A stretch of DNA of 64,000 nt from Escherichia phage SF. Below the pieces are notes generated by a model. It saw only the letters and a list, made by a program, of their open reading frames with translations, was not told where the DNA came from and made no database searches. Where the stretch lies: the sequence record MH359124, one strand, 5' to 3'. This document shows positions 15,289-23,466 of the stretch, one piece after another (within the stretch, counting starts at the first letter, position 1; each line of letters begins with the position of its first letter). Made by a program: the position numbers and the translations under genes.

Positions 15289-15362
15289 GGCCCTGTAGCT
15301 CAACGGTTAGCAGCAGTCCCCTCATAAGGGAAAGGTTACCAGTTCGAATCTGGTCTGGGTCA
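15289..15362 (+). tRNA. tRNA with anticodon CAT (Met or lysidine-modified Ile)
   Basis: Hand fold: acceptor GGCCCTG/CTGGGTC (one mismatch, one GU), D-loop with GG, anticodon loop CTCATAA, T-arm ACCAG-TTCGAAT-CTGGT. Confidence 0.7.
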
Positions 15363-15368
15363 TATATT

Positions 15369-15445
<77 letters not shown>

Positions 15446-18536: not shown

Positions 18537-19133
18537 ATGCGAAACCAAAATAATGATATTGACTCGATGTTCGAAGAGTTCCGAAATAAGGTAAATCCAC
18601 CTACGTCTTTAGTTGATTCATTACGATATGTTGCAACTGGACGTAAATGGTACTGGTCGTCTTCTTATGAGACAACTGAATATGCAAATAACCGAAAATC
18701 TTTATTAGCCCCAGGTATTATGATTCATGATATCGGAGCTATTGCTAAACTAGTTGCAGACCATGATATTAGATTCACCGATTTCGTTGCTCCTACGTGG
18801 TCTGTTTGTTGTTTAAACACTGAATGGGAATATATCAGCGAACGCTCTGAAGATTATTATGGTTTTAGAGACAAGCTTTTAAGGTCTAACATGTTTTATA
18901 TTGATACAGAAGTTCTGGTCAATAATAAAAAATACTATTTCACTTTAATAGTCGATTCTGAAACTATGTATGAAGGCAAGCCTTTGCTTAAAAGAGTTGA
19001 TGCTTTAAGTGCTATTGATGCGCTTTATGAAACCATGGTTGTTAGTCCTAATTTCACTAACAATTTAATCCTTGAGCAATTTATTATGGAATGTAGAGAA
19101 TATGTCAAAGCCAACCCTATACATGCCAAGTAA
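18537..19133 (+). CDS. hypothetical protein with C-terminal FIMECR motif
   Basis: ATG after AAGGAG; MRNQNNDIDSMFEEF. Confidence 0.55.
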   Translation: MRNQNNDIDSMFEEFRNKVNPPTSLVDSLRYVATGRKWYWSSSYETTEYANNRKSLLAPGIMIHDIGAIAKLVADHDIRFTDFVAPTWSVCCLNTEWEYISERSEDYYGFRDKLLRSNMFYIDTEVLVNNKKYYFTLIVDSETMYEGKPLLKRVDALSAIDALYETMVVSPNFTNNLILEQFIMECREYVKANPIHAK

Positions 19134-19497
19134 GCCCTGGGCGTATGAATACAAGCGTAAATTAATCCCAAATGAAGTACTATTTGGCCCTATTTTAGCT
19201 TTAGCATTTTTAATCTTTATGATTATAGGAGCTGTTTTAGATTCTAGTGAAGTTATATCGTCTGATGCAGTGTTTTTACTTATTATAGTCGGGTCGTTTA
19301 TTGTACCATTTTTATTAATGCCTATTAACTGGGTAGGATATTGGCACCAAGGCCGTCATCACAGAGCCCGATTAAGAGAATGGAAAGTTCAGTGCGCAAA
19401 AGCCCAAGCTCAGTATGATGAAGCTGTTAAAAAGTACGAATATGAAGAAGCTATGGAATTCGTTAAGGAAATAAGATGCAAAAGCCTCAACTCTTAA
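19102..19497 (+). CDS. small membrane protein (2 TM helices)
   Basis: Start uncertain (ATG 19102 or 19123); LFGPILALAFLIFMIIGAVL and FLLIIVGSFIVPFLL. Confidence 0.5.
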   Translation: MSKPTLYMPSKPWAYEYKRKLIPNEVLFGPILALAFLIFMIIGAVLDSSEVISSDAVFLLIIVGSFIVPFLLMPINWVGYWHQGRHHRARLREWKVQCAKAQAQYDEAVKKYEYEEAMEFVKEIRCKSLNS

Positions 19498-19835
19498 CCG
19501 TATGGCCTTCTCTTGGTGAGAACATTCTAATTTTTATTATGAGTATTGGCGTGGGATTTGCCTTTGGATTAGTTGGATTTCTTATTGACGGCGTTGTGTT
19601 AGGATTTATAGGGAACACTGGTGGATTCACAGACCAATGGCAGGACTTACGGTATACCCAAGCCTTTGCATCCATCGCATCATTTTGTACTGTAGTCTAT
19701 TTTTACTATGATTTTATAAACCATAACAAGAAAAATAAAAAGGTTTACGCTTCTCAAATGATTAGTTATAATGAACTCCTAGCTAGACGTGAAAATGAAA
19801 CAATAGAAAACTTTATTAAGGAATGTAGAAAATGA
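19476..19835 (+). CDS. membrane protein with C-terminal ENFIKECRK tail
   Basis: 119 aa; hydrophobic segments; conserved C-terminal motif shared with 21982 and 22975 genes. Confidence 0.55.
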   Translation: MQKPQLLTVWPSLGENILIFIMSIGVGFAFGLVGFLIDGVVLGFIGNTGGFTDQWQDLRYTQAFASIASFCTVVYFYYDFINHNKKNKKVYASQMISYNELLARRENETIENFIKECRK

Positions 19836-20137
19836 GTAAGATTATTGAAATTAAAGTACCAGAGTTTAATGATGCCAAATCCGCTTCAGATGCAATTTAT
19901 AAACTTCTGAATCAAGCTGAACGTATCGAAGAAGAAGCAACAAAGATCGCAGACCAATATGCCGTATCATTTTCTGTAGGTGATTATGGTAGCGGTCGTA
20001 CTTATTATCCTAAGGGTGAAATCGTATCCCAGTGGATGAAAAATGAAATTGAAAATAATGGTGGCGATGTTAAGCGTGAAGGTAATGGTTACGTTATTAC
20101 TGAAGGTGCTTGGGTTTCGTCTTCTGCGTTGTGCTAA
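19832..20137 (+). CDS. small protein, tandem paralog A (C-terminus GAWVSSSALC)
   Basis: 101 aa; ATGA overlap with upstream stop. Confidence 0.55.
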   Translation: MSKIIEIKVPEFNDAKSASDAIYKLLNQAERIEEEATKIADQYAVSFSVGDYGSGRTYYPKGEIVSQWMKNEIENNGGDVKREGNGYVITEGAWVSSSALC

Positions 20138-20146
20138 GGAACCACT

Positions 20147-20419
20147 ATGTCTAAAGAACAAACCGAACTGGCTGAAGCCGTAGCAAAAATCTATGCAGCT
20201 ATTGAGGCTGCCAAAGAAATTGCTGATAAACAAAACACAACATTCGACTTGTATCCAGCTTATGGTATGGGTGGAACATATCATTCACCCGGACAGCTTA
20301 AAGCCGATCTTGAACGTTGTACAAAAAACGGCTATGCTGAATGGGCTGACGTTTACCAATACGACTACAACCTGAGCCTCGAAACTGGTGGTTGGATCGC
20401 ATCTTCTCACACTTGCTAA
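20147..20419 (+). CDS. small protein, tandem paralog B (C-terminus GGWIASSHTC)
   Basis: 90 aa; junction TGCTAAGGAACCACTATGTCT conserved with next paralog. Confidence 0.55.
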   Translation: MSKEQTELAEAVAKIYAAIEAAKEIADKQNTTFDLYPAYGMGGTYHSPGQLKADLERCTKNGYAEWADVYQYDYNLSLETGGWIASSHTC

Positions 20420-20428
20420 GGAAACCAT

Positions 20429-20626
20429 ATGTCTCGTGAATTAGATTGTGCTGTACGTACTGCAGTAGCTGCCCTGGAAAACCTGTTCCAAATTGCAACA
20501 GAAGAACGCGAAGAAGTTACATTATGGATTGAAGATAACGCAGGTCTGAATCTCCAGGACGCGATCTCATTATCCCACAATAGTATCACTGTTCAAGGCT
20601 GGGTATCGTCTAGTTATTCTTGCTAA
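20429..20626 (+). CDS. small protein, tandem paralog C (C-terminus QGWVSSSYSC)
   Basis: 65 aa. Confidence 0.55.
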   Translation: MSRELDCAVRTAVAALENLFQIATEEREEVTLWIEDNAGLNLQDAISLSHNSITVQGWVSSSYSC

Positions 20627-20953: not shown

Positions 20954-21910
20954 ATGATGTTAGTTATTGGTTCTCGTGCACTTCACTATCATGGACTTAT
21001 TGATTCTAATGCTATCAAAAATAGTGACTGGGACTTTATTGCAGACCAAGGTTCTTGGAATGCATTCAAAAATCAAATGATGGGTGTATATGTTCATCAA
21101 GATAACCCTGATGTCCAAGTTTTCAAATGCTTCCATAATGGACGCGAAACTCATTTTGAAGCATATATTGTTCCGGCAATCACTAATGTCCGTGAATTAG
21201 TCGGTGAACTCACTCCTGAAGATTTCACATCTTCTTACGACCTTTTAAAATACGCCAAGAAAAATTTGACCAAAGACCGTTTGAACGGGTTTTACTGGGC
21301 AACTCCTGAGATATGTCTTGCAATTAAGATGTCTCATCGTTTCAAGAAAAATAATCCATTCTTTTTAAAGACTATGAACCATATTCAGTATCTTCGTGGT
21401 AAAGGTGTTACACTGAACGACGAACTTACTGAAATTATGCTGAAACGCCAGAAAGAAACCTTGAACTATGCTCACCCAGTTCTTGACACTTCTAAAAGTG
21501 CGTTCTTTAAAGATGACATCTATACATATGACCATGATACTATTCATGAAGCCATTGCACTAACAGACCGCCCGGCTTATACATTTTACATGAAAGATGG
21601 TTCTGAAGTCATGACCTCACGCGAGAAGTTTGAATCATTACCAGAAATGGTAAAATTGGCTGGTGTATACGAAGAATCATGTGTACTAGCATTAGAACGT
21701 TCTCAGATTCCTAACGACTTTAAAATTAACCCTGAAGCCAGTTTTATGATGGCATTGGAAAAAGTCTGTACAAGCATCACCTCTGGTTGGTTCCGTGAGT
21801 ATGCCTGGGAAAACTATAGCAAAGTAGTAAGTATGTACCAAAGCTTAGGACATGATGATTACGTCAAACGTTTCAAACAAAATTTCCATATGGTAAAACC
21901 TTTCAAATAA
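20954..21910 (+). CDS. hypothetical protein, possible nucleotidyltransferase-fold N-terminus
   Basis: 318 aa; N-terminal LVIGSRALHYHG...SDWDF loosely resembles GS...DxD NTase motif. Confidence 0.55.
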   Translation: MMLVIGSRALHYHGLIDSNAIKNSDWDFIADQGSWNAFKNQMMGVYVHQDNPDVQVFKCFHNGRETHFEAYIVPAITNVRELVGELTPEDFTSSYDLLKYAKKNLTKDRLNGFYWATPEICLAIKMSHRFKKNNPFFLKTMNHIQYLRGKGVTLNDELTEIMLKRQKETLNYAHPVLDTSKSAFFKDDIYTYDHDTIHEAIALTDRPAYTFYMKDGSEVMTSREKFESLPEMVKLAGVYEESCVLALERSQIPNDFKINPEASFMMALEKVCTSITSGWFREYAWENYSKVVSMYQSLGHDDYVKRFKQNFHMVKPFK

Positions 21911-21920
21911 CTTCACAAAA

Positions 21921-21966
21921 CTGTTTACATAATTATAGGGACTATGTTATAGTAGTCCTATTAAAA
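21921..21966 (+). promoter_or_regulatory. PeSL-like promoter (GTTTAC; TATAGT inside ATAGGGACTA / TAGTCCTAT)
   Basis: ctGTTTACataattATAGGGACTAtgtTATAGTAGTCCTATtaaaac. Confidence 0.6.
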
Positions 21967-21981
21967 CATGAGGAGAATATT

Positions 21982-22287
21982 ATGAAATTAACAGAAACCA
22001 ATCGAATCGGTCTTTTAACAATATTTGCATCACCTTTTTACGCAGCTCTTTCTGTTGCAGTATTACAAAAGGCCTACGATATGGATGGAGTTACTGGTTT
22101 TGTATTCTTATCGCCGTTTTTGCTATTCGTTGGAGCATTGTTATTATACGCCACGACTAGTTTCGACCATAATGTCTGGGTCAATTATAAATGTAAATTG
22201 TCTGAAGAAGAACACGCAGAAGCTCGTAAAAAAGCTATTGAATCTACCAATCTAGAAAATTTCATTAAAGAATGTCGAGGAAAATAA
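21982..22287 (+). CDS. membrane protein with C-terminal ENFIKECRGK tail
   Basis: 101 aa; 2 hydrophobic helices. Confidence 0.55.
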   Translation: MKLTETNRIGLLTIFASPFYAALSVAVLQKAYDMDGVTGFVFLSPFLLFVGALLLYATTSFDHNVWVNYKCKLSEEEHAEARKKAIESTNLENFIKECRGK

Positions 22288-22288
22288 T

Positions 22289-22975
22289 ATGAATAGTTCT
22301 AAAGTGTTTAATAGTCAAGCTCGTGCAGTAGGTGGTTTTGCTCATGCGATTAAAAACGAGCAGATTAAAAACGAGCCTATGTTCTTTAACTGCGATTTGA
22401 ATTTTGCTTTTGATAATGGCGGTCCAATTACTCGTAGCTTTATCCAAAATCTTCCTGACGATTGGAAAGACTCGGATGTAGTATTTGATTCACGAGTCCA
22501 CATGCTGATGCCTGGTTGGTATCCTGCTATTCCTGGATATCACCATGATGATGTTCCTCGCCCTGATATTCCAGTTGGTCAACACTTTATTACTGCAGGA
22601 CAACCTGATTATGACAATCCTCGCTATTTGTCTGAACATATTCTTGGTCTTGTTAACGCTGATGTGTGTCCTACTCATTTTGCAACAGGAGCTGCAGAGT
22701 TCAGTCAGATTCCTGATGGCGAACTTATCTATCGCCAGTGGCACAAAGAAGTCCTCGAAAAAATTGAAAAAGGCGAACTAGAGAAATGGGAAGCTCCAGA
22801 TCGTACTCTTCTTCAGTTTGATTGGCAAACATGGCACACTGGTTCTCGTGCAATTAGTAATGGATGGCGTTGGTTCGGACGTGTATCTCGTAATACAGGC
22901 CGAGTTAAAAAGATTACCAATGAAATTCGTGTCAATGCTCAAGTTTATCTGGAATTCCCTATGGAAGGCTGGTAA
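22289..22975 (+). CDS. hypothetical protein, possible metal-dependent oxygenase-like (HHDD ... H ... R)
   Basis: 228 aa; YHHDD then CPTHF about 57 aa later then Arg; assignment speculative. Confidence 0.5.
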   Translation: MNSSKVFNSQARAVGGFAHAIKNEQIKNEPMFFNCDLNFAFDNGGPITRSFIQNLPDDWKDSDVVFDSRVHMLMPGWYPAIPGYHHDDVPRPDIPVGQHFITAGQPDYDNPRYLSEHILGLVNADVCPTHFATGAAEFSQIPDGELIYRQWHKEVLEKIEKGELEKWEAPDRTLLQFDWQTWHTGSRAISNGWRWFGRVSRNTGRVKKITNEIRVNAQVYLEFPMEGW

Positions 22976-23466
22976 TGATACATAAAATTCACTGGACAAA
23001 CATGGACGATGGCGACGAAGGTATTTCATATTATTCTATAGATTGGACAGGATGTCCATCCTACTTAGTGAAACATATTTGCCAAGAATTTAAAATCGAC
23101 CAGCCAGCAGGTATTATCGTGAACAGATACATTAATGGATATCAACCTATCGATGAAGTAATACGAACAACTCAAGCTGAGCTTGAAAGGTTTTTCAATA
23201 AGTGTCAATGGATAACAGGATGGATTATATTTGTACCGTCTATATGGTTTTTCAGTACTAAGGTGAGTTCTTTCGGTTTTGTTGATATTATTGCTATCTT
23301 ATTAGCATCTAGTATCATAAGTGTTGTTGGTGGCATCATTGGCGGCGGTACCGCCGCCATCATTATTAATCTTATTAAAAGTAGTTTACAAGAACATAAA
23401 GACAAGATAAAGGCCAAGAATAATGAAGTTGAACGTTTTATTACCGAATGCAGGAATTTGAGATGA
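22975..23466 (+). CDS. membrane protein with C-terminal ERFITECRNLR tail
   Basis: 163 aa; C-terminal hydrophobic and Gly-rich segment. Confidence 0.55.
   Translation: MIHKIHWTNMDDGDEGISYYSIDWTGCPSYLVKHICQEFKIDQPAGIIVNRYINGYQPIDEVIRTTQAELERFFNKCQWITGWIIFVPSIWFFSTKVSSFGFVDIIAILLASSIISVVGGIIGGGTAAIIINLIKSSLQEHKDKIKAKNNEVERFITECRNLR

Follow-up and report, generated by a model that had tools for sequence, protein, structure and literature searches.

The open reading frame at positions 22289–22975 of the window analyzed here, a stretch of 64,000 nucleotides from Escherichia phage SF (MH359124), probably encodes a soluble, stand-alone non-heme Fe(II)/2OG-dependent oxygenase of the double-stranded β-helix (DSBH) fold, structurally nearest to the “PhyH” class. 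It belongs to phrog_1843, an uncharacterized family within a well known superfamily. A sequence-only reading of the window had guessed at an Fe(II)/2OG oxygenase from short motifs; the enzyme class is upheld by the predicted fold and by conservation of the HxD motif, while the distal histidine and the arginine chosen in that reading (H130 and R149) are not conserved.

The Gene and Its Locus

The reading frame is genuine, running on the plus strand from an ATG at 22289 to a TAA ending at 22975 (228 codons and the stop). The stop codon of the upstream frame (22285–22287) lies 1 nt before this ATG, and the stop of the gene itself overlaps the ATG of the e.2 homologue (22975) by 1 nt (Table 1). 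The position between two membrane proteins that had been reported for it is correct: both flanking products are strongly hydrophobic by Kyte-Doolittle analysis, and the 228-residue protein has no hydrophobic segment, its maximal 19-residue hydropathy being 1.00.

The neighborhood in the window comprises e.5/e.4/e.3-like ORFs, e.2, nudE, lysozyme e, and denV, and the 5.5-kb region is 96–97% identical to that of RB69-type phages (Mosigvirus). In the RB69 record, RB69ORF132c is labeled “hypothetical protein,” and the gene downstream of it is e.2, annotated as a predicted membrane protein. The RB69 block ORF132c–139c constitutes an insertion between e.2 and e.3, which is 3,139 nt long in the window. 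In T4, e.2 and e.3 overlap directly, and the interval 63.5–71.5 kb of that genome contains no homologue of the RB69ORF132c-type gene or of the other genes of the block.

The promoter-like site listed in Table 1 resembles the early promoters of T4 and is a candidate early promoter for a unit composed of ORF 21982, the oxygenase candidate, and e.2; the first two of these genes are probably co-transcribed. A terminator scan flagged a perfect GC-rich palindrome, TGGCGGCGGTACCGCCGCCA (23340–23359), in the part of e.2 that encodes its glycine-rich membrane segment; no T-run follows it. Adjacent genes for tRNA-Met (CAT) and tRNA-Arg (TCT) lie at 15289–15445, ~7 kb upstream of the oxygenase candidate.

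Several small ORFs of the neighborhood resemble one another. Four encode small membrane proteins (19072–19497, e.4-like; 19476–19835, e.3-like; 21982–22287, RB69ORF133c-like; and 22975–23466, e.2) that share a cytoplasmic tail motif at their ends, ...(E/N)(N/R)FI(K/T)ECR..., with the variant ...EFVKEIRCK in e.4. The 101-residue protein also weakly matches the e.2 family phrog_2203 (E 0.0017), and from their sequences the four look like a paralogous family dispersed around the oxygenase gene. Three successive ORFs in the RB69ORF139c–136c region (19832–20137, 20147–20419, and 20429–20626) end in GAWVSSSALC, GGWIASSHTC, and QGWVSSSYSC, a C-terminal GW[VI]xSSxxC motif that suggests tandem paralogues. 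The frame at 20954–21910 encodes a 318-residue protein (Pfam DUF7277 and DUF7275, phrog_2141) whose N terminus (IGSRAL...SDWDFI) resembles, by eye only, a GS...DxD nucleotidyltransferase motif. In Citrobacter phage Ursula, the phrog_2141 gene directly adjoins the oxygenase gene; outside the T4-like phages the two do not co-occur.

Table 1. Features of the oxygenase-candidate locus, codons of the proposed active site, and Band_7/SPFH genes near family members at other loci (L numbers). Positions are those of the window unless a locus is named.
Feature	Position	Strand	Remarks
Promoter-like site GTTTACA-18-(TG)TATAGT	21924..21953	+	71-nt gap upstream of ORF 21982; consensus match only
101-aa membrane protein	21982..22287	+	Two hydrophobic segments; RB69ORF133c orthologue, phrog_9798; directly upstream of oxygenase candidate
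Shine-Dalgarno GAGGA	22277..22281	+	7 nt before the ATG of the 22289–22975 ORF; read from sequence
Oxygenase-candidate CDS	22289..22975	+	RB69ORF132c orthologue; phrog_1843 member; predicted DSBH-fold Fe(II)/2OG oxygenase
H85-H86-D87 codons	22541..22549	+	Conserved HxD in family motif PAIPGxHxDxVPR; proposed first two iron ligands
T129 codon	22673..22675	+	348/358 members; start of strand after HxD loop
H183 codon	22835..22837	+	355/358 members; strand 182–185; proposed distal ligand of the iron, on DSBH strand VII
R194-W-F-G-R198-V-S200 codons	22868..22888	+	Strand 192–201; R194 = H183 +11, proposed 2OG C5-carboxylate anchor
G227-W228 codons	22967..22972	+	C-terminal GW in 341/358 members; both models have their lowest confidence in this tail
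e.2 homologue, 163-aa membrane protein	22975..23466	+	phrog_2203; one long hydrophobic segment, residues 92–135
Band_7/SPFH gene, B. cereus prophage	L009 6764–7555		
Band_7/SPFH gene, mycobacteriophage PegLeg	L001 1831–2730		
Band_7/SPFH gene, Paenibacillaceae SPbeta-like prophage	L015 13521–14363		

A Large Family Confined to Phages

An HMM scan of the PHROGs places the protein in phrog_1843 (“unknown function”) with an E value of 6e-95; the only other match is to phrog_23363, and phrog_61 and phrog_81 are absent from the results. Scans of Pfam, NCBIfam, and PADLOC return no significant family for it, the defense-system models of PADLOC included, and Pfam and NCBIfam are likewise blank for distant members. 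Among 115 representatives scanned against Pfam, the sole PhyH match (1/115) falls below threshold at E 0.068. Sequence searches of PDB chains, both with the protein and with a 147-sequence family profile, yield nothing relevant.

The family is nonetheless large. A tblastn search finds the gene in 471 phage records, with “hypothetical” as the description on every match listed. The hosts of the T4-like phages among them are Escherichia, Aeromonas, Klebsiella, Enterobacter, Serratia, Citrobacter, Erwinia, and Edwardsiella, and matches at ~30% identity extend to Vequintavirinae, Bacillus Herelleviridae, mycobacteriophages of the cluster-M type, and Gordonia phages. A word-indexed search gives 1,288 family clusters at 90% identity, and an exhaustive search (E ≤ 1e-3) gives at least 624 at 50% identity, almost all of ~205–235 residues. 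Those “bacterial” copies that were inspected are prophages or prophage edges, and the family is confined to phages and prophages. Homologous DNA is absent from 5,426 complete E. coli genomes, so that the gene is neither host-derived nor a common E. coli prophage gene.

The fold call has already appeared sporadically in automated annotation. The UniRef cluster of an Aeromonas phage protein 81% identical to that of the window is named “Phytanoyl-CoA dioxygenase family protein,” and the copy in Citrobacter phage Ursula (89% identical) is labeled “2OG-Fe(II) oxygenase,” presumably on structural grounds, and assigned to phrog 81 in its record. A search of the literature found no mention of RB69ORF132c and no characterized phage oxygenase of the phrog_1843 family.

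Predicted Fold

A DSBH fold, which the sequence-only reading had proposed seeking by structure prediction, is what the model contains. The AlphaFold2 model built from a 147-sequence alignment (mean pLDDT 91.2, pTM 0.88) has the double-stranded β-helix, or jelly-roll, core of the Fe(II)/2OG superfamily. Its elements begin with a long strand (64–73), short bridges up to residue 85, and a partly flexible loop (91–110); strands 116–122 and 129–138, helix 147–160, and strands 165–168, 173–178, 182–185, and 192–201 follow. A second model, of a B. cereus prophage protein that is 33% identical, has a matching order of elements (pLDDT 94.6) and places H88, H185, and R196/R200 in the equivalent ones, with H185 in strand 185–187.

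A Foldseek search of the PDB concurs, with HygX, SptF, GriE, and H11 among its matches and with 14 matches at E ≤ 1e-3. In the viral structure library BFVD, the top matches are family members, all “uncharacterized,” with weak matches to PhyH or 2OG-oxygenase proteins of cyanophages and giant viruses further down. The scores of the model are those of a distant relative, and it is the uniformity of the hit list that is decisive for the predicted fold class.

A fold of this kind could also belong to a metalloprotein that does not use 2OG, the same His/Asp/His site then serving oxygenation without 2OG, isomerization, or epimerization. The cupin superfamily includes many enzymes that work without 2OG, and three family representatives weakly match the cupin-type AraC_binding domain; even so, this reading is judged improbable, and 2OG-dependent oxygenation is preferred.

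Conserved Residues and the Proposed Active Site

Conservation was assessed in an alignment of 358 full-length members that includes 118 representatives at 50% identity. Positions kept in at least 90% of members are D67, H71, M72, L73, P79, H85, D87, R91, P106, H117, T129, F131, Y148, H183, W193, R194, R198, R214, Y220, and G227-W228. Among them H85 (357/358), D87 (355/358), H183 (355/358), R194 (357/358), and R198 (356/358) are nearly invariant. Ser or Thr occupies position 200 in 351 of the 358, and R198-x-S/T200 forms a second conserved basic/hydroxyl site, 15 residues beyond H183 at its arginine. That the C-terminal Trp is fixed suggests some function for this end of the protein, perhaps that of a lid or of a dimer contact.

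In the canonical DSBH oxygenase, the HxD motif comes after strand II, strand VII carries the distal His, and an Arg or Lys on strand VIII binds the C5 carboxylate of 2OG. The family reproduces this layout: H85, D87, and H183 provide the HxD...H set, with H183 on strand 182–185, and strand 192–201 supplies basic residues within the ~9–17 positions expected after the distal His, R194 at +11 and R198 at +15. The site is assigned to H85-x-D87, H183, and R194/R198 because no other invariant His, Asp, or Arg fits the canonical arrangement. From the alignment and the model we infer that H85, D87, and H183 form the iron triad, with R194 as the 2OG anchor; T129 is a candidate second contact for the C5 carboxylate.

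The motifs quoted in the sequence-only reading are indeed present, YHHDD at residues 84–88 and CPTHF at 127–131, and its proposal of a facial triad formed by YHHDD and H130, with R149 binding 2OG, thus names residues that exist. Its test by conservation in homologues separates the two halves of that proposal: H85 and D87 are near-invariant and H130 and R149 are not. Only 69 of the 358 members have His at position 130; in most members it is Glu, Gln, Lys, or Leu, and among the 118 representatives it is mostly Glu, whereas position 149 varies among them between K, G, E, and D. In the model, moreover, R149 lies in helix 147–160, off the barrel strands. The distances had been misjudged as well, H85 and H130 being 45 residues apart rather than ~57; the Arg placed ~18 residues further on can be recognized as R149, 19 after H130. 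Spacing lends no weight in any case, as the loose pattern Hx[D/E]..(40–160)..H..(8–20)..[R/K] occurs in 54% of 20,000 composition-preserving shuffles of the 228-residue protein and so is by itself no evidence. Conservation refutes H130 and R149 as catalytic residues, and the proposal in its literal form is scarcely credible.

Conservation bears equally on whether the fold is catalytically dead and serves as a binding or sponge protein or as a structural adaptor. Inactive copies are evidently tolerated, since in the tandem-duplicated members, three long proteins, the HxD is lost from the second copy and the result is a pseudo-dimer of which one site is dead. The motif is kept without exception in the first copy, however, and the H/D/H/R set is present in at least 115 of the 118 single-domain representatives at 50% identity, which would be unexpected without catalysis; a dead protein is accordingly very improbable, and an active enzyme is the reading retained here. 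The tandem forms hint at a dimer. They are three of four metagenomic members with unusual architecture (P0254, P0296, P0373, and P0390), the fourth being a 728-residue protein in which an N-terminal APH-type phosphotransferase (kinase) domain is fused to the family domain. Fusion partners are too sparse to have been used for inferring the substrate.

Relationship to Known Oxygenases

Curated 2OG-oxygenase models of Pfam and NCBIfam give no significant match to the family, and the weak indirect links that exist run through phrog_274. Fifteen of 115 representatives match phrog_274 (best E 8.9e-5), a weak bridge; a scan of ten divergent members found no such match, and the link was recovered through a phrog_274 protein (E 1e-47) of cyanophage S-RIM50 (KU594605; L019 45753–46358). 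That protein carries GFHTDE and MHSG-x10-R and weakly matches both Pfam 2OG-FeII_Oxy_3 (E 0.0046) and phrog_61, “2OG-Fe(II) oxygenase,” and hhalign pairs its His and Arg with H183 and R194 (weak, E 0.008). The weak bridges thus lead from phrog_1843 to phrog_274 and on to PF13640 and phrog_61. PHROG 274 is labeled “DNA endonuclease V,” whereas the Ursula record assigns T4-type DenV to phrog 1183; judged by the motifs and matches of the S-RIM50 protein, the label is probably wrong and the family 2OG-oxygenase-like.

Enzymes of the TauD/TfdA type follow the motif HxD-x(23–26)-T/S-x(114–183)-H-x(10–13)-R. The only local match in an hhalign comparison of the family profile with E. coli TauD places H85/D87 on H99/D101 (weak, E 0.052). 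A forced global alignment was rejected as unreliable in the C-terminal half, where it pairs H183 with a non-ligand His. The spacing of the distal residues is identical in the two, H255-x10-R266-x3-R270 in TauD and H183-x10-R194-x3-R198 in the family. In TauD, H99 and D101 are iron ligands and R270 contacts the anionic sulfonate of the substrate (PMC9304159), which suggests a similar role for R198. The HxD alignment, the H-x10-R-x3-R spacing, and the phrog_274 bridge are three weak, independent links that agree with the proposed active site.

The closest structural likeness is to the PhyH class, represented by EasH (4nao), EctD (4nmi), proline hydroxylase H11 (7dzz), and human phytanoyl-CoA hydroxylase (2a1x). 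Compared with these enzymes of 250–290 residues, the family is clearly shorter (~225 residues), is restricted to phages, ends in an invariant GW, and conserves a separate set of residues, R91, H117, R198, R214, and Y220. Because the gathering score of PF05721 (PhyH) is not reached, it is PhyH-like in structure and not a sequence-defined member. Phages carry many orphan 2OG oxygenases, so that the existence of one more such family will not surprise the specialist. Those of cyanophages and other marine phages are small (~200 residues) and stand-alone and occur in T4-like genomes (PMC3037559; PMC12774648). These families (PHROG 61, 81, and 274; PF13640) are alike in size, autonomy, and T4-like setting, but phrog_1843 is a separate PHROG found in phages of enterobacteria, Aeromonas, Bacillus, Mycobacterium, and Gordonia and not in cyanophages.

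The remaining literature on phage 2OG oxygenases covers AlkB-like enzymes (PMC7824862) as well as TET/JBP DNA dioxygenases. The same Fe/2OG chemistry might be directed at nucleic acid, by an AlkB-like oxidative demethylase repairing alkylated phage DNA or RNA or by a base hydroxylase, the latter an idea of the sequence-only reading. AlkB and TET/JBP (5mYOX) rank lower in the structural comparison and differ in His-to-Arg spacing, however, and the window protein belongs to an acidic family (median pI 5.97, median net charge −4.6) and has no methyltransferase or glycosyltransferase gene nearby. The family does not qualify as AlkB, for which the closest fold match, a nucleotide-recognition lid, and a basic nucleic acid-binding surface would be expected, or as TET/JBP, for which a DSBH of that type and an association with DNA methyltransferase or glycosyltransferase genes would be. 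A nucleic acid-directed enzyme is therefore considered unlikely.

A Gene That Moves Alone

The genomic setting of the family varies widely. In Aeromonas phage avDM5 the gene has motA and a topoisomerase gene nearby; in Serratia phage X20 it lies in the interval from rI/DksA-like genes to the nrdC region; and in actinophages, Bacillus phages, and prophages it occupies early or accessory regions. When 15 window proteins were compared by tblastn with 21 loci, only the oxygenase candidate was shared outside the close relatives, and no partner is conserved across lineages in the gene-neighborhood comparison. Copies that are 68–72% identical occur in unrelated backbones (L012–L017 and L021), which include a 50-kb Stenotrophomonas phage, contigs with SPP1-portal/P22-like features, and a prophage edge where the copy adjoins host glycosyltransferase genes; sequence identity at this level indicates recent horizontal transfer of a single gene. 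Variable position, the sharing of this gene alone, and its presence in unrelated backbones together describe a horizontally mobile, self-sufficient module, the substrate of which must be available in very different hosts.

Some neighbors recur loosely. In PegLeg, a B. cereus prophage, and a Paenibacillaceae SPbeta-like prophage, a gene for a Band_7/SPFH membrane protein lies 0.4–5 kb from the family member (Table 1), and an RtcB-like RNA ligase is encoded a few genes upstream of the member in PegLeg (L001 311–1797), there together with a tRNA gene, and in Gordonia phage Abscondus (L005 2327–3544). Both were set aside as partners, as they recur in some Gram-positive and actinophage contexts and are neither adjacent nor universal. 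In Pseudoalteromonas phage H101 (L004 769–3720), the family member directly follows the genes for ribose-phosphate pyrophosphokinase and nicotinamide phosphoribosyltransferase, which make up an NAD-salvage module, and precedes denV by three genes.

Proposed Reaction and Substrate

The reaction proposed here is drawn from the established chemistry of the superfamily. H85, D87, and H183 would bind Fe(II) as a 2-His-1-carboxylate triad, and 2OG would chelate the iron with its C5 carboxylate held by R194 and probably also by T129. Reaction with O2 would then oxidatively decarboxylate 2OG to succinate and CO2, generating an Fe(IV)=O species that would hydroxylate or oxidatively dealkylate the primary substrate. 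The near-invariant R198-x-S/T200, R91, H117, Y148, R214, and Y220 probably form the pocket for a polar, likely anionic, substrate. Probably expressed early, in one transcription unit with the genes of two small membrane proteins, the enzyme would have an accessory role in host takeover or metabolism. The hosts among the matches listed are all aerobes or facultative anaerobes, which fits a dependence on O2, although the bias of the databases confounds this.

The large number of invariant Arg, His, and Tyr residues points to a ligand that is polar and probably anionic, and the best structural neighbors act on small molecules. Given that there is no phage-specific partner, that the hosts span Gram-negative, Gram-positive, and actinobacterial cells, and that the family is acidic, a metabolite or a protein ranks above polymeric nucleic acid. 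A ubiquitous small metabolite would be the most likely substrate, followed by a host protein side chain and then by nucleic acid.

A more speculative reading, which is rather doubtful at present, sees in phrog_1843 a mobile single-gene phage oxygenase that would use O2 and 2OG to modify a universal bacterial molecule as a weapon of host takeover or counter-defense. Its spread alone among unrelated phages with very different hosts at ~70% identity, the invariant polar pocket, and the early or accessory location of the gene prompt the idea. The targets imagined under this heading, with the same reservation, are a cofactor, a nucleotide of immune or stress signaling, or a conserved protein of the host, for instance a translation factor. 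A substrate class of this kind would be without precedent among characterized 2OG oxygenases.

Implications

RB69 and related phages serve as standard models, and assignment of an Fe/2OG function makes one of their conserved ORFs, anonymous and “hypothetical” in almost every record, a testable enzyme with named catalytic residues, H85, D87, H183, and R194. The family so defined is large (at least 624 clusters at 50% identity) and has no entry in Pfam or NCBIfam. Should the substrate turn out to be mundane, better annotation would be the only gain. As the gene moves alone among phages of Gram-negative, Gram-positive, and actinobacterial hosts, however, its substrate should be common to all of these cells, and identifying it could reveal an oxygen-dependent step in the interaction between phage and host.
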